Positions 4,874 through 13,741 of a DNA stretch of 24,000 nt are shown piece after piece (the first letter of the stretch is position 1; each line of letters starts with the position of its first letter). The DNA is from Pseudomonadota bacterium (GTDB taxonomy: Bacteria > Pseudomonadota > Gammaproteobacteria > HTCC5015). The notes under the pieces were generated by a model. That model did not search any database and was not told the origin of the DNA. It saw only the letters and a list, made by a program, of their open reading frames with translations. Both the position numbers and the translations under genes were made by a program. The stretch covers positions 27,778-51,777 of the forward strand of contig JBNJGD010000009.1 in NCBI GenBank assembly GCA_051747425.1, written 5' to 3'.

Positions 4874-5188
4874 TTATTTGTCGTCGTCCAGGTGCTTGAC
4901 ACTGTCATAGCCGCCGCGATTGATGACATTGATGTAACCCATTTTCTCCAGCGACTCTTTGGCCTTGCCGGCGCGGCGTCCGCTCGCGCAGTAGAGATTG
5001 ATTTGAGCCGTGCGGTCGGCTGTGACCTCTTCGATTTCCTCATCAATTTCATCGTGGGGGATATTAATGGCCTGATCCAGGTGACCTTCGCTGTACTCCT
5101 CGGCGGAGCGCACATCAATCCAGAGCGGCTCGGCCAGCGCCATTGTCGTAAACAGGGAAAGCGTCAAAAACAGGGCGACTCTTTTCAT
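4874..5188 (-). CDS. Periplasmic single-domain rhodanese (PspE-like thiosulfate sulfurtransferase)
   Basis: 104 aa with signal peptide MKRVALFLTLSLFTTMALA. Rhodanese core WIDVRSAEEYSEGHL and active-site loop YCASGRRAG. ATG at 5188 is preceded by GGAG. The track's 5206 start is a TTG. Confidence 0.85.
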   Translation of the reverse strand: MKRVALFLTLSLFTTMALAEPLWIDVRSAEEYSEGHLDQAINIPHDEIDEEIEEVTADRTAQINLYCASGRRAGKAKESLEKMGYINVINRGGYDSVKHLDDDK

Positions 5189-5347
5189 TTCAAACTCCGC
5201 TGCCAATCTTTAAAAGACAGACAGTGTATGACATTTTCCCGCTCCATTGAATTCGCAGTGCCGGCCCGCCGATTTCCTGGAATGTGTAAGAAAACTCTTT
5301 TCCGGGAGACTAATCGGGTGTCAGCCACTCACAAAGGAACTTACAGC

Positions 5348-5956
5348 ATGATATTGATAGACCGCGTCTCCCAACTCTACTCGTCCGCTCTCCAACAAGC
5401 ACAGCGAGCCGACTTTCTGGCCCCTGTCGCGCTGCGACTGTTTCTCGCCCCCATTTTCATTCTCGCCGGCTGGAACAAGCTGACCGGGCTCGAGGGCACC
5501 GCCTACTACTTTGGCGAAATGCTGGGCATGCCGGCCCCCATGTTCATGGCGGTGATGGCCGGATCGACCGAATTGATTGGCGGTATCAGTCTGCTGATCG
5601 GCCTTGGCATGCGCCTGATGACGCTGCCCCTGATGATGACGATGCTGGTGGCTGCGGTGACAGCTCACTGGGAAAACGGCTGGCATGTACTGCCCGAATC
5701 GACGCTGACCATGCCCTGGGAGTGGCGACCGGACCTGATCGAACAGGCCAATGAGAAAAAGGAAATGGCCAAAAGCATCTTGCGCGAGCACGGCAATTAC
5801 AGCTGGCTCACTGAAGCCGGGGCGATCACCGTATTGAAAAACGGCGTGGAATTTGCCGCTACCTACTTCGCCATGCTTCTGGCACTGTTCTTCATGGGCC
5901 CCGGTCGCTATATCAGCCTGGATTACTGGCTGAAGCGCAGCCTCGACAAGGACTGA
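5348..5956 (+). CDS. DoxX-family membrane protein with a long extramembrane insert
   Basis: ATG at 5348 is preceded by AAGGAA. The sequence LAPVALRLFLAPIFILAGWNKL ... STELIGGISLLIGLGMR is typical DoxX. A ~60-aa polar insert (HWENGWHVLPESTLTMPWEWRPDLIEQANEKKEMAKSILREHGNYSW) precedes the last TM. The upstream part of the 354-aa ORF is antisense to the rhodanese gene and is not coding. Confidence 0.8.
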   Translation: MILIDRVSQLYSSALQQAQRADFLAPVALRLFLAPIFILAGWNKLTGLEGTAYYFGEMLGMPAPMFMAVMAGSTELIGGISLLIGLGMRLMTLPLMMTMLVAAVTAHWENGWHVLPESTLTMPWEWRPDLIEQANEKKEMAKSILREHGNYSWLTEAGAITVLKNGVEFAATYFAMLLALFFMGPGRYISLDYWLKRSLDKD

Positions 5957-5977
5957 TTCAAAACAGAAAGGAAGGAA

Positions 5978-6004
5978 GGCGGGCGTGTTTGCAGCACGCC
6001 CGCC
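5978..6004. terminator. Bidirectional hairpin terminator between the convergent DoxX and CMD genes
   Basis: Perfect 10-bp stem: GGCGGGCGTG (5978-5987) pairs with CACGCCCGCC (5995-6004). T-rich tracts follow on both strands (TTTCAC on plus; TTCCTTCCTTTCTGTTTT on minus). Confidence 0.6.
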
Positions 6005-6011
6005 TTTCACG

Positions 6012-6563
6012 CTAGCTGGAAGGTTCCCAGGCAAAGGGTTGGAAGGGCTCGTCCACCGGCGTATCGGCAATGTGGTTGATGTAGTTACTCATCACCTTCT
6101 GCGACAGCGCCAACACCACTTCCAGAGCCTGTCGCTTTTCATAGCCCGCCTCGAAAAAGGCTTTCAATTCGTCCTCCCCGTGCCCACGGTTTCTCACCAT
6201 GGCCAGGGTAAACCGGCGCAGGGCCTCGAGTTTTTCGTCTTTCAGGGGGCTCTCTTCGCGCAGGGCGTCATCGATGTCGGTGTCCACACCCATGGAGCGG
6301 GCAATACCACTGTGAGCCGGAACGCAGTAGTGACACGCGTGCTCGACATTGATGGTCTGCCAGACCACCGTCTTCTCCTCGTCACTGAGACTGGACTCCA
6401 GCACCAGCCCGTGCAATCGCTGGTAGGCCTCCAGCGTGCCCGGCGCTTCCGCCATGACCGCGTGGAGATTGGGAATCATGCCAAAATCCTTCAGCGATTG
6501 TTCCAGTAGCGGCTTCGATTTTTCCGGTGCCGATTCCACATCGTGCAGTTGAAATGCAGTCAT
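6012..6563 (-). CDS. Carboxymuconolactone decarboxylase (AhpD-like) family protein with CxxC motif
   Basis: 183 aa from ATG 6563, preceded by a strong AAAGGAGG. Contains the AhpD-type motif EHACHYCVPAH and the typical CMD fold sequence (PNLHAVMAEAP..., EKRQALEVVLALSQ). Confidence 0.85.
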   Translation of the reverse strand: MTAFQLHDVESAPEKSKPLLEQSLKDFGMIPNLHAVMAEAPGTLEAYQRLHGLVLESSLSDEEKTVVWQTINVEHACHYCVPAHSGIARSMGVDTDIDDALREESPLKDEKLEALRRFTLAMVRNRGHGEDELKAFFEAGYEKRQALEVVLALSQKVMSNYINHIADTPVDEPFQPFAWEPSS

Positions 6564-6576
6564 GCATCCTCCTTTA

Positions 6577-6593
6577 TTTGAGTGATCGTTCAA
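6577..6593. promoter_or_regulatory. Candidate TetR operator, copy 1 (TTTGAGTGATCGTTCAA, imperfect palindrome around GATC)
   Basis: 17-mer repeated at 6610-6626 with 15/17 identity. The internal dyad is TTGA..GATC..TCAA. It lies in the 107-bp divergent region between the CMD gene and the TetR gene. Confidence 0.5.
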
Positions 6594-6609
6594 TTACAGC
6601 CTAACGATA

Positions 6610-6626
6610 TTTGAGCGATCATTCAA
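6610..6626. promoter_or_regulatory. Candidate TetR operator, copy 2 (TTTGAGCGATCATTCAA)
   Basis: Second copy of the 17-mer, 33 bp (three helical turns) from copy 1. It overlaps a possible -35 (TTGAGC) for the TetR operon. Confidence 0.5.
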
Positions 6627-6670
6627 ATTATGCTGAAATGGGGTCATTGAAACATTGCACGGAACCCAAC

Positions 6671-7273
6671 ATGCCCAGAACTGCCCAGTACAATCGCGAT
6701 CAAGCCCTGTCCGCCGCCGTCAGCCTCTTCTGGCATAAGGGCTACCACGCCACTTCGCTCAAGGCGGTGGAGCACGCCCTGAACATGCGCCCGGGCAGCC
6801 TCTACAACGCCTTTGGCAACAAGGAATCGCTGTTTCTCGAGGCCCTGGAGCACTACACCCGCAATATGGCGGAAGACCTGGAGCGCCATATTGAACAAAA
6901 GGGAAAGGTGCTCGACGGTATCCACAGCTATCTGGCCTGGTTGTTACTGGACGAGGGCCGCGAACAGGCCGCCTCCCCGGCCTGCATGCTGGTCAAGACC
7001 CTGCTCGAATCCACAGATAACACCCCGGTACTGCGGGAAAAGTCAGTGGCCCTGCTGGGCGAGATGGAGCGGCGTCTCACTGACGCCCTGGAGCGCGCCG
7101 CAGAGGCCGGCGAACTGAAACCCTCCGTGGATTGCCAGCGCCTGGCCCGCCTTCTGCAAACCCAGATCATGGGCATACGGGCCTTTGCCCACACCGGTGC
7201 CGACCAGGCGGCGCTGAGGGCCCTGCTCGATGACATCGAGTCCCTGCTCTCCCCCTACCAACCCGCCCACTGA
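6671..7273 (+). CDS. TetR/AcrR-family transcriptional regulator
   Basis: 200 aa from ATG 6671. The N-terminal HTH RDQALSAAVSLFWHKGYHATSLKAVEHALNMRPGSLYNAFGNKESLF is canonical TetR. Confidence 0.88.
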   Translation: MPRTAQYNRDQALSAAVSLFWHKGYHATSLKAVEHALNMRPGSLYNAFGNKESLFLEALEHYTRNMAEDLERHIEQKGKVLDGIHSYLAWLLLDEGREQAASPACMLVKTLLESTDNTPVLREKSVALLGEMERRLTDALERAAEAGELKPSVDCQRLARLLQTQIMGIRAFAHTGADQAALRALLDDIESLLSPYQPAH

Positions 7274-7287
7274 ACAAGGAGAAGACA

Positions 7288-7686
7288 ATGACGCAACAAA
7301 AAAGACTGGAATGGTCGCTACTGACCCTGAGAATCGGTGTGTTTATCGTGATGCTGATGTGGACGCTGGACAAGTTCGTCAACCCGGATCACGCCGCCGC
7401 CGTTTTTGACAAGTTTTACGGGCTGAGCGGGTGGGGGCCCGAAATTCTATACACCCTGGCCGGACTGGAACTGGTACTGCTGGCCGCCTTTCTGGCCGGC
7501 TGGCAAAAGCGCATCACCTACGGGCTGGTACTGGCATTTCACGGCGTGTCCACACTGTCCTCGTTTCCCCAGTATCTGGACGCGTTCAACAACCTGCTGT
7601 TTTTTGCCGCCTGGCCCATGCTCGCCGCTTGCATTGCGCTCTACCTGCTGCGCGACAGCGACAAACTGATGATCATCGGCCGATAA
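7288..7686 (+). CDS. Small four-TM membrane protein, DoxX-like, co-transcribed with the TetR gene
   Basis: 132 aa. AAGGAGAAG lies 5 nt upstream, and the gene starts 14 nt after the TetR stop. It has four hydrophobic segments. The DoxX-like assignment rests only on general resemblance. Confidence 0.65.
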   Translation: MTQQKRLEWSLLTLRIGVFIVMLMWTLDKFVNPDHAAAVFDKFYGLSGWGPEILYTLAGLELVLLAAFLAGWQKRITYGLVLAFHGVSTLSSFPQYLDAFNNLLFFAAWPMLAACIALYLLRDSDKLMIIGR

Positions 7687-7689
7687 CTG

Positions 7690-7905
7690 CTACCGGCCCT
7701 CTTCCCTGTTCTGATCCGATGGGCTGTCCCCTTCGGGTCGGGCATAGGCCCGGGAGATGTGTCGCAGGCTTTTCACCTGTCGGGAGAACTGATTACAGGC
7801 TGAACACATCAGCAAATGCATGCGCAGTTGTCCTCGCTTGGCCAAAGTCAGCTTTTCATCCTGTGCCCGGGACATGAGTTGTGTGGCTTGGTGACAATTC
7901 AGCAT
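7690..7905 (-). CDS. Short soluble zinc-binding (zf-HC2 / ZAS) anti-sigma factor
   Basis: 71 aa. H-x3-C-x2-C motif at H30/C34/C37 (RMHLLMCSAC), plus upstream C4/H5. No hydrophobic segment. GAGGAG lies 6 nt before the ATG, which is 9 nt after the sigma-factor stop. Confidence 0.8.
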   Translation of the reverse strand: MLNCHQATQLMSRAQDEKLTLAKRGQLRMHLLMCSACNQFSRQVKSLRHISRAYARPEGDSPSDQNREEGR

Positions 7906-7914
7906 AAAGGCTCC

Positions 7915-8511
7915 TCAGGAAAACCAGTGATTTTCCAGACATTCGCGCAGACGAAGGCGCGCACGATAGAGGGTGACATAAAGGTTGCTCTTGCCAATGT
8001 TCAACTCCGTGCACATTTCTTCCGTACTCAGACCGACAAACTCTCTCATCATAAAGAGCCGCCCCTGCTCTGCCGGCAAATGTTGTAAGCAAGCCTCGAA
8101 AACGGCCATGAATTGATCATCTGAAGTGATGTCCTCTGGAGACCCCCAGTGTTTGGGCCGCTCTCCCTTGTGCCAGAACCCTTTGGCATCAAACAACTGC
8201 TCTTCAAGGCCGGAATCGCTTTCCGTATTGTCGAAGTGAACTTCCTTGCGCCTCTCAATCTGCCTGAAGTGGTCCGCGATCTTGTGCTTCAGAATACCAA
8301 TCACCCAGGTCGAATAGGCCGATTGGCGGGAGAACGAGTGACTGCTTTTCAAGGCACCCAACAACGCTTCCTGAACCATATCTTCTGCCAGCGTCGCATT
8401 GGAGAGTTGCTGCCGGGCGAACCGAAGCATCTTGCTCTGAAGCTCCTCCAAATAGGCCGAGTCGTTCAGCCAGTCGGAACCAGTTTGAGCGAGTGGTTCT
8501 GTGCCGTTCAT
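7915..8511 (-). CDS. ECF (sigma-70 family, group 4) RNA polymerase sigma factor
   Basis: 198 aa from ATG 8511, preceded by GAGGG. Region 2 reads AEDMVQEALLGALKSSHSFSRQSAYSTWVIGILKHKIADHFR. Region 4 reads LPAEQGRLFMMREFVGLSTEEMCTELNIGKSNLYVTLYRARLRLRECL. The upstream part of the 255-aa ORF is Arg/Ala-rich and overlaps the ArsM gene 3' end. Confidence 0.88.
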   Translation of the reverse strand: MNGTEPLAQTGSDWLNDSAYLEELQSKMLRFARQQLSNATLAEDMVQEALLGALKSSHSFSRQSAYSTWVIGILKHKIADHFRQIERRKEVHFDNTESDSGLEEQLFDAKGFWHKGERPKHWGSPEDITSDDQFMAVFEACLQHLPAEQGRLFMMREFVGLSTEEMCTELNIGKSNLYVTLYRARLRLRECLENHWFS

Positions 8512-8578: not shown

Positions 8579-9631
8579 CTAACAGCAAGCGCCATCACGA
8601 CTTTCACTGCCACTCGCGGCGGAGCTGAACGGCACCGACTCGCCACAGCCCTCAAACAGGCCGTAGTGCCGGGTGAAGTCACCTATAAACTCGAAGTGCC
8701 CGGCAAAGCGACTCTCCTCAAGCATGCGGAAAGTATTGCCGCACACCGGGAACACCTTGCCGGTTTCAATGGCGTGATGGGCATCCAGATCGAATCGATG
8801 GGCGTGGCCCGGCACGCTGCCACGGTAGATCACGGCCTGGCCGTGGTCCTCGCAGGCGTCCTCCAGCTCATTGATGTTGAACAGTCGGTAAGTGGCCGAG
8901 TAAAAACGGATATTGCCGATGCGCTCGGCCAGCGCCGGGTCGGTCACGGCGAGCGGGCGGTCCTCGACCAGGCGCGGATCGTTAAAGCCCGCTGTACGGG
9001 ACAAGCGGATAAAATCTTTCCAGTAGAGGGCGCCCCCCAGGCACTCGCCGTAGAGCACCGGGTCGTTGGCCACCGACGCCGGGATGCGGCGGTCGGCATA
9101 AACATCGGAAAAGTAGAACTCGCCGCCGGGCTTGAGCAATTTTTTAACGCCGGCCAGCACAGCGGGCTTGTCGGGGGACAGATTGATGACGCAGTTGGAC
9201 ACCACCACATCAAAGGCGCCCTCCTCCAGGTCCAGCTCGTCGAGCTTTTCGATGTAACCCTTGAGGAAGCGCACATTGTCGTAACCAAACTGATCGGCGT
9301 GATAGATGCGGTGATCCTCGGCCACGGCCAGTTGCTCGTCGGTCATATCCACGCCGACCACTTCGCCCTTTGGTCCCACCAACTGAGCCAGCGCGTAGAC
9401 ATCCCGGCCGCTGCCGCAGCCCAGATCCAGCACTCTGCAGCCCTCCAGCAACTCGGGGCAGACCAGACCACAGCCGTAGTAGCGGGAGAGTACCTCGCCG
9501 TGGATGTTGGCCAGCAGCGGCTTGAGCCACTCGGGCACCTCGCTGGCGTCGCAGCAGGCATCGGTTTTCAGGTCATCGGTACTCTGCAGCGTTTTGCCGT
9601 AGTAGTCCTGAACAATATCGTGTGTCGACAT
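8579..9631 (-). CDS. arsM: As(III) S-adenosylmethionine methyltransferase ArsM
   Basis: 350 aa from ATG 9631, preceded by GAGGAG. It resembles characterised ArsM along its full length: DLKTDACC, YYGCGLVCP, SAM motif VLDLGCGSGRDV, SNCVINLS, FSDVYADRR, YGECLGGALY. All four As-binding Cys positions appear to be present. The ArsM C-terminal domain is present and the protein ends in GACC. Confidence 0.88.
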   Translation of the reverse strand: MSTHDIVQDYYGKTLQSTDDLKTDACCDASEVPEWLKPLLANIHGEVLSRYYGCGLVCPELLEGCRVLDLGCGSGRDVYALAQLVGPKGEVVGVDMTDEQLAVAEDHRIYHADQFGYDNVRFLKGYIEKLDELDLEEGAFDVVVSNCVINLSPDKPAVLAGVKKLLKPGGEFYFSDVYADRRIPASVANDPVLYGECLGGALYWKDFIRLSRTAGFNDPRLVEDRPLAVTDPALAERIGNIRFYSATYRLFNINELEDACEDHGQAVIYRGSVPGHAHRFDLDAHHAIETGKVFPVCGNTFRMLEESRFAGHFEFIGDFTRHYGLFEGCGESVPFSSAASGSESRDGACC

Positions 9632-9656: not shown

Positions 9657-11807
9657 TTATCCGCGGCGCCACTGGTGGTAGCGCGCCAGCCAACGCAGCA
9701 CACCCTCCGGCTTGTGGGCCTGTTTCCACTGGCCGGCGGCAAACTTGTTGGCCTCGGCCAGTGTCGGGTAGGTGTGGATGGTCGAGAGAATCTTGTTCAG
9801 GCCCAGCCCCCAGCGCATGGCAAACACAAACTCGGCCAGTAGCTCGCCGGCGTGGAGGCCCACGATGGTGACACCCAGGATCCGGTCCTTGCCCGGCGGC
9901 GTCAGCACTTTGACGAAGCCCTTGATCTCGCTCTCGGCGATGGCCCGGTCGAGGTCGTCCAGGTCGTAGCGTGTGACTTCGAACGCCACGCCCTGCTCCG
10001 TCGCCTCCTGCTCGTTCAGTCCCACCCGGGCCACCTCGGGGTCGACAAAGGTGGTCCAGGGAATCACGCGGTAGTCCGCCTTGAACTTTTTGAACTGGCC
10101 AAACAAACCGTTCACCGCCGCGTACCAGGCCTGGTGGGCGGCGGTGTGGGTAAATTGATAGGGGCCGGCCACATCGCCCACGGCAAAGATATTGGGGTAC
10201 AGCGTTTCCAGATACTCGTTGGTGACCACGGTGCGATCGGTTTCGATGCCCAGGGTCTCCAGACCGTAACCGGTCAGACGCGGAGCGCGACCCACGGCAC
10301 AGAGCAACTCGTCAAAGGCAATCGCCTCCTCGCGCCCGTCAACCTCCACGATCAGGCGCTTCTCGTCGCCCTCGATCTCGCAGCGCAGGGCCTTGTGGCC
10401 GGTGAGGACGCGCACGCCCTCCTCGCTCAACTCGTGTTTAACCAGCTCGGACACCTCGGCGTCCTCTCGCGCCATCAAGCGCTCACCCATTTCCACCTGA
10501 GTCACTTCGCTGCCGAGTCGGGCAAGGGCCTGGGACAACTCGCAGCCGATGGGGCCGCCGCCGAGCACCAGCAAGCGACGCGGCGGCGACTCCAGGGAGG
10601 CGAAGCGATCCCACAGGGTATCGGAAGTCACATAGCCGACTTCTTCCAGTCCCGGCAACGGCGGCACAAAGGGGCTGGCGCCGGCGGCGATGACGATACT
10701 GCGGGTAGTCAGGCGCTGCGTTTCACCGTTGTCCTTGGCAATCTCAACCGTCCAGGGATCCACAATGGTGGCATAGCCCTGTTGCACATCGACGCCCAGA
10801 CTCTCGTAGCGCTCCACGCTGTCGTGGGGCTCGATATCGCGGATGATCGACTGGATTCGGCCCATGATGGCTTTGAAGGACACAGCGGGCTCGGCGGCCT
10901 CCAGACCGTAGCGCTCGGCGTGGCGCATTTGGTGGGCCAACTTGGCGCTCTTGATCAAGGCCTTGCTGGGGACACAGCCGTAGTTGAGGCAGTCGCCGCC
11001 CATTTTGTGGGCCTCCACCAGGGTGACCTCGGCCTTTACCGCCGCGGCAATATAGGCGCTGACCAGACCGCCGGCACCGGCGCCGATCACCACCATATTG
11101 CGATCAAAGCGTTTGGGCTTTTGCCAACCGCGATAGACCTTGCGGCGGCGGAAGAAAGCGACGATGGCCCTGGCAATCCAGGGAAAGAAGCCCAACAAAA
11201 CAAAGGAGAGGATCAGTTCGGGGGACAAAATACCCGAAGCGCTCTCCAGCTGTCCCAGCTGTGTGCCGGCATTCACATAGACCACCGTACCGGCCAGCAT
11301 GCCCACCTGGCTCACCGCGTAAAAGGTCACGGCGCGCATGGGCGTCAGCCCCATCACCAGGTTAATGACGAAAAACGGAAAGGCGGGAATCAGCCGCAGG
11401 GTAAAGAGATAAAAGGCGCCGTCGCGCTTGATGCCCCGGTTAATGGCTTTGAGGCGGTCGCCAAAGCGTTGCTGCACCGTGTCGCCAAAGACATAGCGGG
11501 CCGAGAGAAAGGCCAGTGTGGCGCCGATGGAGGAGGCAAAGGACACCAGCACCGTGCCCCACAACAGGCCAAACAGGGCACCGGCGGCCAGCGTCATGAT
11601 GGCCGCACCGGGCAGTGAAGCCGCCGTCACCAAGACATAGGCGATAAAGAAACCGCCTATAACCAGCCAGGGGGATTCCTGGCGCCAGAGCGCGACTTCG
11701 TCCAGGCCCGATTTAAGCCCGGCAAAGGTCAAATGCTGGTGGCCGCCCAAGGCAAAGAACACCACAGCAACGGTGGCGATCAGGGCAATAATGATCAGTT
11801 TTTTCAC
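9657..11807 (-). CDS. Fusion protein: N-terminal TVP38/TMEM64 (DedA-superfamily) membrane domain + C-terminal class-I FAD/NAD(P)H pyridine-nucleotide disulfide oxidoreductase
   Basis: The N-terminal ~230 aa are polytopic, with RLIPAFPFFVINLVMGLT (a TVP38/DedA signature). The rest reads VVIGAGAGGLV, redox-active GGDCLNYGCVPSK, a second Rossmann motif LVLGGGPIGCE, and the dimerisation-domain sequence HTYPTLAE. The preferred start is GTG 11807 (AGGA 7 nt upstream, 31 nt after the ArsS stop). The track's TTG at 11915 would overlap ArsS by 77 nt. Confidence 0.85.
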   Translation of the reverse strand: MKKLIIIALIATVAVVFFALGGHQHLTFAGLKSGLDEVALWRQESPWLVIGGFFIAYVLVTAASLPGAAIMTLAAGALFGLLWGTVLVSFASSIGATLAFLSARYVFGDTVQQRFGDRLKAINRGIKRDGAFYLFTLRLIPAFPFFVINLVMGLTPMRAVTFYAVSQVGMLAGTVVYVNAGTQLGQLESASGILSPELILSFVLLGFFPWIARAIVAFFRRRKVYRGWQKPKRFDRNMVVIGAGAGGLVSAYIAAAVKAEVTLVEAHKMGGDCLNYGCVPSKALIKSAKLAHQMRHAERYGLEAAEPAVSFKAIMGRIQSIIRDIEPHDSVERYESLGVDVQQGYATIVDPWTVEIAKDNGETQRLTTRSIVIAAGASPFVPPLPGLEEVGYVTSDTLWDRFASLESPPRRLLVLGGGPIGCELSQALARLGSEVTQVEMGERLMAREDAEVSELVKHELSEEGVRVLTGHKALRCEIEGDEKRLIVEVDGREEAIAFDELLCAVGRAPRLTGYGLETLGIETDRTVVTNEYLETLYPNIFAVGDVAGPYQFTHTAAHQAWYAAVNGLFGQFKKFKADYRVIPWTTFVDPEVARVGLNEQEATEQGVAFEVTRYDLDDLDRAIAESEIKGFVKVLTPPGKDRILGVTIVGLHAGELLAEFVFAMRWGLGLNKILSTIHTYPTLAEANKFAAGQWKQAHKPEGVLRWLARYHQWRRG

Positions 11808-11838
11808 AAGTTCATCCTGTCTTGGCAATGGTTTTGGT

Positions 11839-12813
11839 TCAGTGGCTTTCCAGGGCACCGCCGCAACTGGAGCCACTGCCGGCAGTGCAACCGTAGCAGT
11901 GATCGGCGACGACAATGGGCTGGCCCACGGCGTCGGAAGTCAGCAAGTCACGCAAGTGGGGGCGACCTTCGGAAAAACCCTGCGAAGGCATGGGCAGCTC
12001 CAGCATCTGGTTGAAATCGCAATCGTAGAGATAGCCCTGCCAGTCGACGCTGACCTGGCTGCGACACATCACATGGGGCAGGTTCGCCGCCGAGTGGTTG
12101 CTCTTGAGCAAATCCATGTAGGCGTCAAATTGATGAGTGGCCCGCAACATCGAACCAAAGCGCTTGATGGGCATATTGGTGATGGTGAAGAGCTGGTTGA
12201 ACTCGATGCCGAAGTGCTCGCGCAACTCGCGCTTGTAATCGGCCTCCAGAGCGCCCTGCTCCGGCGGCAGCGAAGCGCCTTGGGGGTTGTACACCAGATT
12301 CAGCACCAGATCGCTGCCGGGTTGGCCGTAACCCAGGGCATTGAGGCGCTTGAGAGCCTCGATACTGCCCTCGAAGACGCCGTCGCCGCGCTGGGCATCG
12401 ACATTGTCCAGGGAGTAGCACGGCAGCGAGGCCACCACTTCCACTTTGTGGTCGGCGAGAAACTGCGCCGTGTCCTCCTGACCCGGCTCGAGCAGTATGG
12501 TCAGGTTGCAGCGATCAATCACATGCACACCGCGCTCGGTGGCGGCCCGCACCAGGCCCTTGAAGCCCTCGTGAATTTCCGGCGCACCGCCGGTGAGATC
12601 CAGTGTTTTAAAGGGACGCTTCTCCAGCACCTCGACAATCAGGTCGAGATTGTCGTCGGTCATCATTTCCGTGCGGCTGGGACTGGAGCCCACATGGCAA
12701 TGACTGCAACTGAGATTGCAGCGGTAGCCAATATTGACTTGCAAGGTGTCCAGTGACTCCCGGCGCAAGGACGGGAAATCGGTATTTTCCAAAAGGGGCA
12801 GTACGGATTTCAT
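11839..12813 (-). CDS. arsS: Radical SAM / Cys-rich C-terminal domain protein of the ArsS (arsenosugar-pathway) family
   Basis: 324 aa. Radical-SAM cluster motif YRCNLSCSHC. The family-typical C-terminal Cys-rich tail reads DHCYGCTAGSGSSCGGAL. Size and layout match the rSAM/Cys-rich (ArsS) family. This is the Cys version, with no in-frame TGA. Confidence 0.82.
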   Translation of the reverse strand: MKSVLPLLENTDFPSLRRESLDTLQVNIGYRCNLSCSHCHVGSSPSRTEMMTDDNLDLIVEVLEKRPFKTLDLTGGAPEIHEGFKGLVRAATERGVHVIDRCNLTILLEPGQEDTAQFLADHKVEVVASLPCYSLDNVDAQRGDGVFEGSIEALKRLNALGYGQPGSDLVLNLVYNPQGASLPPEQGALEADYKRELREHFGIEFNQLFTITNMPIKRFGSMLRATHQFDAYMDLLKSNHSAANLPHVMCRSQVSVDWQGYLYDCDFNQMLELPMPSQGFSEGRPHLRDLLTSDAVGQPIVVADHCYGCTAGSGSSCGGALESH

Positions 12814-12895: not shown

Positions 12896-13741
12896 TCACG
12901 GGCGCCTGAATCGCAGGGTCATTCGGTCGCTTTCACCGATTTCACGGTACTTCTCAATGCAACCGCTGCGCTGTGAATCCTCCAGTGACCGGCAACCGCG
13001 CAGTGAAGGTGGCAGTGACCAGACTCCGGCATCATGGTCCCGGCTGTCTTTGGGGTTGTGGTTGAGTGGGCTCGATGCTTCCAGTTCAAAACCGGCGGAT
13101 TCCACCTTTTCGACCAGCCAGGCTTCGCGCACATAACCCGTGCGCTCTTCCCCTTCCGGAGTGGCGTCGGGCTGTGCCCGGTGTTGCACAATGGCCAGAA
13201 CACCGCCCGGTTTTAGCGCTTCCATGCTGGCAGCGAGCACCTGATCGACAATTCCGCCGCGGATAAAATTGTGGAAATGTCGGGATAAAATCACCATGTC
13301 CAGCGATTCGGGTTCGCCAAATGTGGTGTGCCGGGGAGGCTGGAACGGCACCACTTTCACATCGCCATAGACCGCCGGGCTGGATTCAATCATGTCGACA
13401 AAATCCCGCGCCATGGCGGCGCGCCAGTCCGGCCTGGCGTCCAGGGGAAAGTTGGCGACCACCAACTGGCCTTTGTCCCGCAAAGCCGGCCCCAAGATCT
13501 CGGAGTACCAGCCGCCACCGGGCCAGACCTCCAAAACAGTCATGTCCGGTTCCAGACCCCAGAATTCAAGGGTCTCAACCGGCCTTCTATGGACATCACG
13601 AGCGCGATTCTCGGCACTTCGATGATCGCCATTTACCGCCTTGAGGATGTGATCCTGCTCGGCCCGCTCCGGCAGCGACTGACAGGCCGTCAGCCCCAGC
13701 ACCAGCACCGAAAAAAACAGTTTAAAGGGAATCGCTTGCAT
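12896..13741 (-). CDS. Predicted lipoprotein class-I SAM-dependent methyltransferase (COG4798-like)
   Basis: 281 aa from ATG 13741. Signal peptide with lipobox MQAIPFKLFFSVLVLGLTAC. Methyltransferase core VLEVWPGGGWYSEIL ... LKPGGVLAIVQH. The upstream part of the 323-aa ORF has no coding features. Confidence 0.8.
   Translation of the reverse strand: MQAIPFKLFFSVLVLGLTACQSLPERAEQDHILKAVNGDHRSAENRARDVHRRPVETLEFWGLEPDMTVLEVWPGGGWYSEILGPALRDKGQLVVANFPLDARPDWRAAMARDFVDMIESSPAVYGDVKVVPFQPPRHTTFGEPESLDMVILSRHFHNFIRGGIVDQVLAASMEALKPGGVLAIVQHRAQPDATPEGEERTGYVREAWLVEKVESAGFELEASSPLNHNPKDSRDHDAGVWSLPPSLRGCRSLEDSQRSGCIEKYREIGESDRMTLRFRRP

Follow-up and report, generated by a model that had tools for sequence, protein, structure and literature searches.

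A TVP38/DedA–disulfide reductase fusion linked to arsS and to a secreted DUF547 protein: a candidate accessory of bacterial arsenosugar-type chemistry

The 24,000-nucleotide stretch of DNA analysed here, called the window throughout, belongs to a gammaproteobacterium of the HTCC5015 lineage (assembly GCA_051747425.1, contig JBNJGD010000009.1, positions 27,778 to 51,777) and carries on its minus strand, at 9657..11807, a gene that joins a TVP38/DedA membrane domain to a class-I flavoprotein disulfide reductase (FDR). The gene lies between arsS, coding for the radical S-adenosylmethionine (SAM) enzyme of arsenosugar biosynthesis, and a gene for an ArsM-type As(III) SAM methyltransferase. The linkage of the fusion to arsenosugar gene clusters, as judged from gene order and co-occurrence across genomes, is strong and reproducible, yet circumstantial and not universal. 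The fusion is read here as a cytoplasm-facing reductase and transporter module that may have been recruited to the ArsM/ArsS organoarsenical pathway as an accessory, an interpretation whose chances are put at about even; its transport activity, its link to arsenic chemistry and its substrate are what we infer from the comparative evidence that follows.

In the known pathway, ArsS appends the 5'-deoxyadenosyl radical to dimethylated arsenic species, yielding DDMAA, which then loses adenine so that the ribose can be elaborated, and in Synechocystis arsS and arsM are co-transcribed (bioRxiv 10.64898/2026.04.29.721666; 10.1101/2022.09.23.509062). The window resembles the Synechocystis sp. PCC 6803 ArsM-ArsS pathway, as well as the arsenosugar set of NCBIfam (TIGR04167, TIGR04282, TIGR04283, NF038099), in holding arsS and arsM in one co-directional block, with ArsS above its cut-off. 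Conversely, neither the TVP38-reductase fusion nor its partner DUF547 is covered by a model of that NCBIfam set, and the ArsM of the window scores below cut-off.

Arsenosugar-type neighbourhoods of the fusion gene

The arsS gene of the window (11839..12813, minus strand) was identified by TIGR04167 with 467 bits against a cut-off of 300, and its product carries the CNLSCSHC cluster motif and the C-terminal tail ADHCYGCTAGSGSSCGG, which is conserved in 23 loci. It is followed on the same strand, after 31 nt, by the fusion gene, then after 25 nt by arsM (8579..9631, minus strand) and after a further 67 nt by a sigma factor gene. ArsM was recognised through Methyltransf_31 and lies below the cut-off of all NCBIfam ArsM models, the best of which gives 166 against 263; nonetheless, its translation keeps the four ArsM cysteine motifs (ACC, YYGCG, SNCVINL, YGEC), and the copies found in other clusters are 67-79% identical across distant genomes. 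On these features it is best described as an ArsM subtype of such clusters for which there is no curated NCBIfam model. The adjoining same-strand TIGR04167 gene marks the locus as an ArsS cluster, and the genome also holds ArsM and the pair of glycosyltransferases (GTs), the latter outside the operon, at C5:88101-89413, where a TIGR04283 match of 245 bits (cut-off 182) occupies C5:88125-88778 and a DUF2064 gene adjoins.

Neighbourhoods were compared at 80 loci from species-representative genomes (66-73% identity), which were scanned by tblastn, with recurring neighbours named by Pfam and NCBIfam. Genes of the curated arsenosugar set recur there: TIGR04283 and TIGR04282, both named 'arsenosugar biosynthesis glycosyltransferase', are present at 35/80 and 33/80 loci, ArsS at 27/80 and ArsM at 19/80, and matches to both glycosyltransferase models are above cut-off in a related cluster. 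Specifically, arsS immediately precedes the fusion gene, in the same orientation, in 23 of the 26 ArsS-bearing loci with strand scored; it overlaps the start of the fusion gene by 4-8 nt in 7 loci, and the gap is at most 32 nt in 13 more. This arsS-fusion pair is carried by members of many families of Gamma- and Betaproteobacteria, with Herminiimonas fonticola S-94, Halioglobus japonicus, Marinimicrobium alkaliphilum and Pseudomaricurvus alcaniphilus as culturable examples. Typically, the genes run arsS - fusion - DUF547 - GT - GT - arsM, and the series ArsS-fusion-DUF547-GT2 is repeated in metagenome loci. The window itself reads lipoprotein ORF (open reading frame) - arsS - fusion - arsM - extracytoplasmic function (ECF) sigma - anti-sigma. 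An earlier reading of the bare sequence, referred to here as the original prediction, had described the fusion as wedged between arsS and arsM, which is true of the window, but the arrangement is a trimmed version of the longer cluster. In the same way, its focus on arsS was borne out by the recurrence of that linkage, whereas the most constant partner turned out to be a secreted DUF547 protein. A fusion clade specific to arsS was considered and rejected, as linkage to ArsS turns up in scattered parts of the family tree and at least 7-12 state changes would be needed.

The association extends to whole genomes. In a sample of 400 genomes drawn evenly from the class, with ArsS counted at E <= 1e-40, the fusion is present in 106 (about a quarter) and ArsS in 188; an ArsS above the TIGR04167 cut-off is present in 186 (~47%). 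Both proteins occur in 89 genomes, the fusion only in 17, ArsS only in 99 and neither in 195, that is, ArsS accompanies the fusion in 89/106 genomes and is found in 99/294 without it. When one genome per family is kept (222 genomes), which corrects only in part for shared ancestry, ArsS is found in 50/59 (85%) with the fusion versus 60/163 (37%) without it, with an odds ratio of 9.5. The original prediction had made its proposal hinge on the two domains occurring with arsM/arsS in other genomes, and this co-occurrence is seen both at many loci and in the class-wide sample.

The same genome sample contains stand-alone TVP38 proteins that are 44-60% identical to the membrane part of the fusion; ArsS is present in 13/15 genomes with such a gene, and for four of them, those that were fetched, a partner FDR gene could be confirmed. 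In three genomes (L088-L090) a separate reductase gene comes immediately after the one for TVP38, its product being 58-62% identical to the enzyme part, and at a further locus (L084) the split pair stands within a PHO4-ArsS-ArsM-GT2-DUF2064 cluster. The survey of fused versus split versions that had been suggested at the outset thus recovers both forms and, because split adjoining pairs exist, the TVP38 and reductase parts likely act together whether fused or not.

The secreted DUF547 partner

DUF547 is encoded directly downstream of the fusion in 39/80 loci, more often than any other neighbour, and its gene usually starts ~4 nt past the fusion stop; an example from the neighbourhood scan is L005:6223-7032, and the copy in the window's own genome lies at C3:~92290-92973. 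Nearly all partner proteins carry a Sec-type signal peptide, of the twin-arginine type in Comamonadaceae, and they share an invariant pair, C158-x4-C163, within H.AVNCASIGCPAL. The AlphaFold2 (AF2) model of DUF547 is confident (pLDDT 89.7), and a fold search of the PDB with it gave no match with E < 1 (best E = 1.1), so that the modelled protein looks like an uncharacterised fold and offers no clue to function. A profile search of the protein library retrieved P0195, a secreted protein that joins DUF547 to a PstS-like binding domain; no TVP38-DUF547 fusion stood among the 150 best DUF547 hits. An apparent reductase-DUF547 read-through, P0134, was set aside as an unconfirmed fusion or an artefact, given that the two parts are in different frames at the four nearest metagenome loci (L092, L097, L098, L103).

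A parallel exists in plants, where class IV glutaredoxins are GRX-DEP-DUF547 fusions (PMC13621322). These resemble the bacterial pair in joining DUF547 to a thiol-disulfide oxidoreductase (PMC13621322), but the plant proteins are cytosolic, whereas the bacterial DUF547 is encoded by a separate gene with a signal peptide, outside the window.

The constancy of this partner gives room to an explanation that does without arsenic, and that we consider possible, if tentative: the fusion and DUF547 could form a general envelope redox module that reduces a small thiol/disulfide, or else some species of sulfur or selenium, or shuttles it across the inner membrane, lying near arsS through a shared stress regulon or a metalloid island. 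The two-gene unit does stand alone in Marinomonas, Sphingomonas and Desulfobulbales, and ArsS is absent from four of five genomes of this kind. Moreover, the Sec or twin-arginine signals and the invariant cysteine pair of DUF547, the DUF547-PstS-like fusion P0195 and the plant glutaredoxin fusions all suit an envelope redox function, as do the ECF sigma/zinc anti-sigma pair in the block of the window and the TIGR03169 flavoprotein, a SelD-fused type, at 23/80 loci. What this explanation accommodates poorly is the tightness of the arsS linkage, in which the start codon of the fusion runs into the stop of arsS across many families, in a gene order that does not vary, together with the presence of ArsS in 85% of fusion genomes versus 37% of others, and the identity of the recurring neighbours, which are curated arsenosugar genes and not a variable set.

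The fusion family and the start of the gene

The protein search returned at least 8,000 candidate relatives of the fusion. The closest among the matches listed, from gamma proteobacterium HTCC5015, is 94% identical and annotated 'mercuric reductase', most of the best 120 proteins listed show 100% query coverage at 70-94% identity, and the NCBI name for such proteins is 'bifunctional TVP38/TMEM64 family protein/FAD-dependent oxidoreductase'. With that NCBI family the fusion shares architecture and length at 66-94% full-length identity, with no sequence feature that would set it apart, and aligning 27 family members gives 716 columns with a mean column identity of 80%. By full-length homology, the fusion protein thus belongs to a family that is annotated and very common but has no assigned function. 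The architecture that the original prediction had singled out is real, but the family was already annotated and is very common. Fusions to PF07992/PF02852 are indeed the commonest among COG0398 DedA proteins according to Todor, Herrera & Gross 2023, who tie the COG0398 fusion only loosely to aerobic metabolism and mention no arsS, DUF547 or arsenosugar genes (PMC10127716). The literature search found no paper tying TVP38/DedA or DUF547 to arsenosugars and none using the NCBI name of the fusion.

The minus-strand ORF 9657..11915 is present in the ORF list of the window and, as predicted, holds the membrane and reductase domains in a single frame, with four Pfam domains. Two starts had been proposed, namely TTG 11915, which would overlap arsS by 77 nt, and GTG 11807, preceded by AGGA; both calculations are correct. 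The GTG start, 31 nt from the arsS stop, yields a product of 716 aa (stop codon 9657-9659) and is the better candidate. Nearly all of the best 120 homologues listed are 716-719 aa long, begin with MKK... and align from query residue 1, and the equivalent codon is ATG in 47/79 aligned loci. Since the lengths and N-termini of the homologues agree with the 716-aa form, GTG 11807 is taken as the start; TTG 11915 was rejected, as it would add 36 residues absent from every homologue.

In two genomes of the same family as the window's genome (G125, G302), arsS and the fusion gene are on separate contigs, and over the first 330 residues their fusions are 50-59% identical to that of the window, whereas those of more distant taxa reach 64-69%; on this comparison the arsS-linked copy of the window may have been acquired horizontally. 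As a separate observation, the fusion on a contig of the metagenome-assembled genome Synechococcus sp. UW140 (L056) nests in a Hydrogenophaga clade with 98% support, and the contig is, from this placement, probably a binning contaminant rather than cyanobacterial.

The membrane domain, its topology and a possible flippase role

The membrane part of the fusion (residues 1-225; 11133..11807, minus strand) was delimited by PF09335, hydropathy and charge distribution and consists of an N-terminal transmembrane (TM) helix, an acidic loop, the VTT/TVP38 core and a final TM helix. VTT_dom PF09335 scores 75.7 bits against a gathering score of 33.9, with a match spanning 11262-11603; the signature RLIPAFPFFVINLVMGLT corresponds to residues 138-155 of the 716-aa form, and the DedA-type motifs FxxxR (F100-R104) and LRLxPxFPFF (137-146) are invariant in the 27-sequence alignment. 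The assignment to COG0398 follows the NCBI TVP38/TMEM64 name of the homologues and PMC10127716, not a COG model. Over 79 homologues, the mean identity of the VTT core is 69% versus 73-78% for the enzyme parts. The TVP38 domain is therefore under constraint, as expected of a functional domain instead of a plain anchor, and its enzyme-like degree of conservation makes a working transporter or scramblase probable. It contains no cysteine, and a sequence search of the PDB found no solved structure related to it.

The final TM helix is followed by the basic linker FRRRKVYRGWQKPKRFDR (residues 219-236; 11100..11153, minus strand), defined by a positive-inside count, which holds 9 K/R compared with 0 in the preceding loop. 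By the positive-inside rule, this difference places the reductase putatively on the cytoplasmic side, and NAD(P)H and FAD are located in the cytoplasm. The channelling idea of the original prediction needed a cytoplasmic and not a periplasmic reductase, an orientation that the charge distribution favours. Charge was used for topology because the full-length AF2 model, a monomer, is only moderate (pLDDT 69.9, pTM 0.59, with the active-site and tail regions <50). The structure prediction that had been recommended did match the reductase fold, but a model of this quality is unreliable for domain packing and topology.

A TVP38 domain with a function of its own could also act on lipids. In that case, which is rather improbable, it would be a scramblase or flippase for an arsenosugar lipid, or else for a polyprenyl-linked intermediate that the GT2/CofC-like enzymes make, with the reductase tuning or assisting the step. 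The DedA superfamily does comprise phospholipid scramblases and undecaprenyl-phosphate flippases, and COG0398 members have been proposed as scramblases (PMC10127716). The high conservation of the VTT core and the co-clustering of GT2 (TIGR04283) and nucleotidyltransferase-like (TIGR04282) genes are in keeping with this. Nonetheless, a flippase leaves the invariant CxxxxC/His-Glu reductase without a task, the fusion is also found without ArsS or GT genes nearby, and the GT genes of this genome are on another contig.

The reductase domain and its class

Residues 237-685 (9753..11099, minus strand) form a class-I FDR domain, supported by Pfam, NCBIfam, alignment and fold match. Pyr_redox_2 (PF07992) scores 201 bits, Pyr_redox (PF00070) 75.8 bits and Pyr_redox_dim (PF02852) 100 bits. 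The FAD-binding motif VVIGAGAGG occupies residues 239-247, the redox pair C273-LNYG-C278 (CLNYGC) is encoded at 10974-10991, the NAD(P)H Rossmann motif LGGGPIGCE spans residues 415-423, and the dyad His678...Glu685 lies in HTYPTLAE (9753-9776) at a dimer-interface position. All the motifs named in the original prediction (GAGAGG, CLNYGC, the second Rossmann motif, HTYPTLAE) are hence found in the translation. C273 and C278 are invariant in alignments of 27 and 80 sequences, H678 and E685 in that of 27. By these sequence features the protein is a class-I FDR, with GxGxxG, CxxxxC, a second Rossmann fold and a dimerisation domain with its His-Glu pair, and it presumably forms dimers.

The CLNYGC pair aligns with the active-site pair of both dihydrolipoyl dehydrogenase (Lpd) and mercuric reductase MerA, and H678 aligns with the catalytic His of Thermus thermophilus Lpd 2eq6 (HPHPTLSE), where MerA 5x1y has Tyr. 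These two are also the closest PDB sequences (5x1y, E = 6e-75; 2eq6, E = 1e-71), and a fold search with the whole model matched soluble Lpd and MerA only, with TMt ~0.83 to each. The NAD(P)H site is mixed, with a Lpd-like Glu439 and MerA-like R443/R447, and its sequence fits NADH or NADPH. Only five cysteines are present in the fusion protein (273, 278, 422, 476, 503). Two features set the family apart: an invariant Asp (D272) directly before the first redox Cys, which is family-specific, and a 31-residue Cys-free C-terminal tail (residues 686-716; 9660..9752, minus strand; 64% mean identity) that is invariant at N687, W694, K695, H698, P700, H711 and W713 and of low AF2 confidence in the monomer model.

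Membership of the MerA, Lpd and glutathione reductase (GR) families was tested and rejected, as each fails a curated cut-off or defining residues. Specifically, the Lpd model TIGR01350 gives 384.7 bits (cut-off 408.8), the MerA model TIGR02053 363 bits (cut-off 454.45), and the GR models NF004776 267/480 and TIGR01421/01424 216/556 and 241/606; the protein also misses the cut-off of its best-scoring NCBIfam model, NF004991, an unnamed 'FAD-containing oxidoreductase', and those of all other named reductases. The original label 'glutathione-reductase-type' was accordingly too loose, with Lpd and MerA about equally close and GR scoring lower.

A MerA-like reductase of Hg(II) or another soft metal, in which the membrane domain would be the uptake route replacing MerT, is very unlikely. 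It has in its favour the annotation of the 94%-identical relative, the best PDB sequence match and a copper-resistance locus 6 kb away, and the comparison with MerA and its MerT/MerP transporters (Tn501, Lysinibacillus 5x1y) is apt in the class-I FDR fold, the CxxxxC pair, the NAD(P)H-FAD core and the concept of a membrane uptake protein coupled to a cytoplasmic reductase. Conversely, the fusion protein has no HMA/NmerA domain by Pfam and no Cys beyond residue 503, thus no C-terminal Cys pair, it carries the His-Glu dyad where MerA has Tyr and stays short of TIGR02053, and no mer genes occur among the recurring neighbours or the annotated window ORFs. The judgement that it is not a bona fide MerA, already made in the original prediction, is therefore upheld.

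A membrane-anchored housekeeping Lpd or GR is more improbable still, for although the protein comes near the TIGR01350 cut-off and has the fold (TMt ~0.83), redox Cys pair, HxxxxE dyad and dimerisation domain of Lpd (E3) and GR, it differs from them in being membrane-tethered, below all their cut-offs and endowed with D272 and the conserved tail, no E1/E2 (2-oxoacid dehydrogenase) genes are found among its neighbours in the window, and three further class-I reductase paralogues are encoded on contigs C8, C27 and C9. A housekeeping role is thus unlikely because of the sub-cut-off Lpd score and the paralogues elsewhere in the genome; the original prediction had named such a role as one that would remove the link to metalloids.

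Proposed role in the ArsM/ArsS pathway

The organoarsenical reading places in the inner membrane a dimeric protein in which a polytopic TVP38/DedA domain, a basic linker and a cytoplasmic class-I FDR would be combined. Electrons would pass from NAD(P)H to FAD and then to the C273/C278 dithiol, and the His678-Glu685 dyad of the partner subunit would help to reduce, at the surface of the membrane, a substrate of the disulfide type or a metalloid bound to thiols, while the TVP38 domain would import the substrate or export the product. In this way, the fusion could supply or recycle reducing power at the membrane and keep the pathway thiols, or methylated arsenic itself, in the trivalent reduced state needed by ArsM/ArsS. 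Candidate targets are a small disulfide or thiol-arsenical conjugate that the TVP38 domain would move, an oxidised Cys pair in ArsM, the C-terminal tail of ArsS, which is invariant and rich in Cys, and, reached indirectly, the secreted DUF547. The fusion may work via or beside DUF547.

A more ambitious version, advanced tentatively and with appreciable doubt, would unite the fusion and the secreted DUF547 in a trans-envelope redox and transport module. Here, a small thiol/disulfide or a thiol-bound metalloid would be carried across the inner membrane and recycled on the cytoplasmic face, driving arsenosugar or arsenolipid synthesis by ArsM/ArsS and possibly selenium chemistry. The arrangement recalls DsbD/CcdA by analogy only, in combining an NAD(P)H reductase in the cytoplasm with a polytopic protein in the membrane and a secreted partner that carries a conserved Cys pair; it differs in that there is no sequence relationship and in that the Cys-free TVP38 domain rules out a thiol-disulfide relay in the membrane. 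Given that Cys-free domain, periplasmic coupling could therefore proceed only via a shuttled small molecule.

Several observations weigh against a role in arsenosugar-type chemistry as outlined here. In the genome of the window, the DUF547 gene (contig C3) and both glycosyltransferase genes are on other contigs. About 15% of the sampled fusion genomes have no ArsS, about half of the ArsS genomes have no fusion, and the one-genome-per-family count removes the effect of common descent only partially. Four of the five named fusion-DUF547 genomes (Marinomonas arctica, Sphingomonas sp. CCH21-G11, Hydrogenophaga pseudoflava, Gilvimarinus) have no ArsS, for which reason a strict dependence on ArsS was rejected. 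In the family tree, the ArsS-linked fusion copies form no clade of their own. Lastly, the AF2 monomer (pLDDT 70) gives no reliable packing of the two domains, and the absence of cysteines from the TVP38 domain precludes a thiol relay across the membrane. Because each occurs alone, the fusion module would function without a strict need for ArsS, and ArsS without a strict need for the module, and it is as a non-obligatory accessory that the fusion is placed in the ArsM/ArsS pathway.

Other genes of the block and of related clusters

The tightly packed, co-directional block of the window is headed by an ORF at 12896..13741 (minus strand) with a lipoprotein signal and methyltransferase-like character, for which no Pfam or NCBIfam match was found and which has a homologue in only 1/80 loci; on this distribution it is regarded as lineage-specific. 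At the 3' end, the block is closed by a sigma/anti-sigma pair on the minus strand, namely an ECF sigma factor (7915-8511; Sigma70_r2/r4_2; TIGR02943 213.8 bits versus a cut-off of 162) and a 71-aa zf-HC2 anti-sigma protein (7690-7905) with H-x3-C-x2-C and no TM helix. A related ECF sigma gene is near the fusion in 12/81 sequences, the window itself counted. A scan of the block for promoters and terminators gave nothing above chance and no credible internal element.

Just downstream, at 4892-7686, the window encodes a DoxX-domain protein, a CMD/AhpD-like protein, a TetR regulator and a small DoxX/MauE-like membrane protein, another thiol/redox-flavoured set of genes. The E. coli COG0398 genes ydjX/ydjZ likewise adjoin a rhodanese gene and an AhpD-like gene.

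Among the remaining neighbours in the compared loci, an MTAP-type phosphorylase occurs in 10/80, a PHO4 permease and a PstS-like binding protein in 5/80 each, and ArsP in 1/80. The MTAP-type phosphorylase gene, exemplified by L038:1646-2518 (TIGR01694, 317 bits versus a cut-off of 275), adjoins arsS clusters, and its product is a plausible candidate for the removal of adenine from DDMAA. The recurrent TIGR03169 flavoprotein ('Nterm_to_SelD'), at L038:2763-3872 in the same locus (366.6 bits versus a cut-off of 310), belongs to a family otherwise fused to selenophosphate synthetase, and its recurrence hints at a selenium side to these clusters.

Significance

DedA/TVP38 proteins are present in nearly all organisms, and, to our knowledge, no substrate is known for those of the COG0398 branch in bacteria. 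The conserved, translationally coupled arsS-fusion pair offers the first testable lead to the function of the DedA-reductase family. Moreover, with ArsS in ~47% of the genomes sampled, arsenosugar-type chemistry in bacteria, as far as gene content can tell, may be far more widespread than the cyanobacterial literature implies. If the trans-envelope module proved true, it would give bacterial COG0398 DedA proteins, and DUF547 as well, a biochemical role for the first time, and it would add missing steps to the bacterial arsenosugar pathway, beyond ArsM and ArsS.

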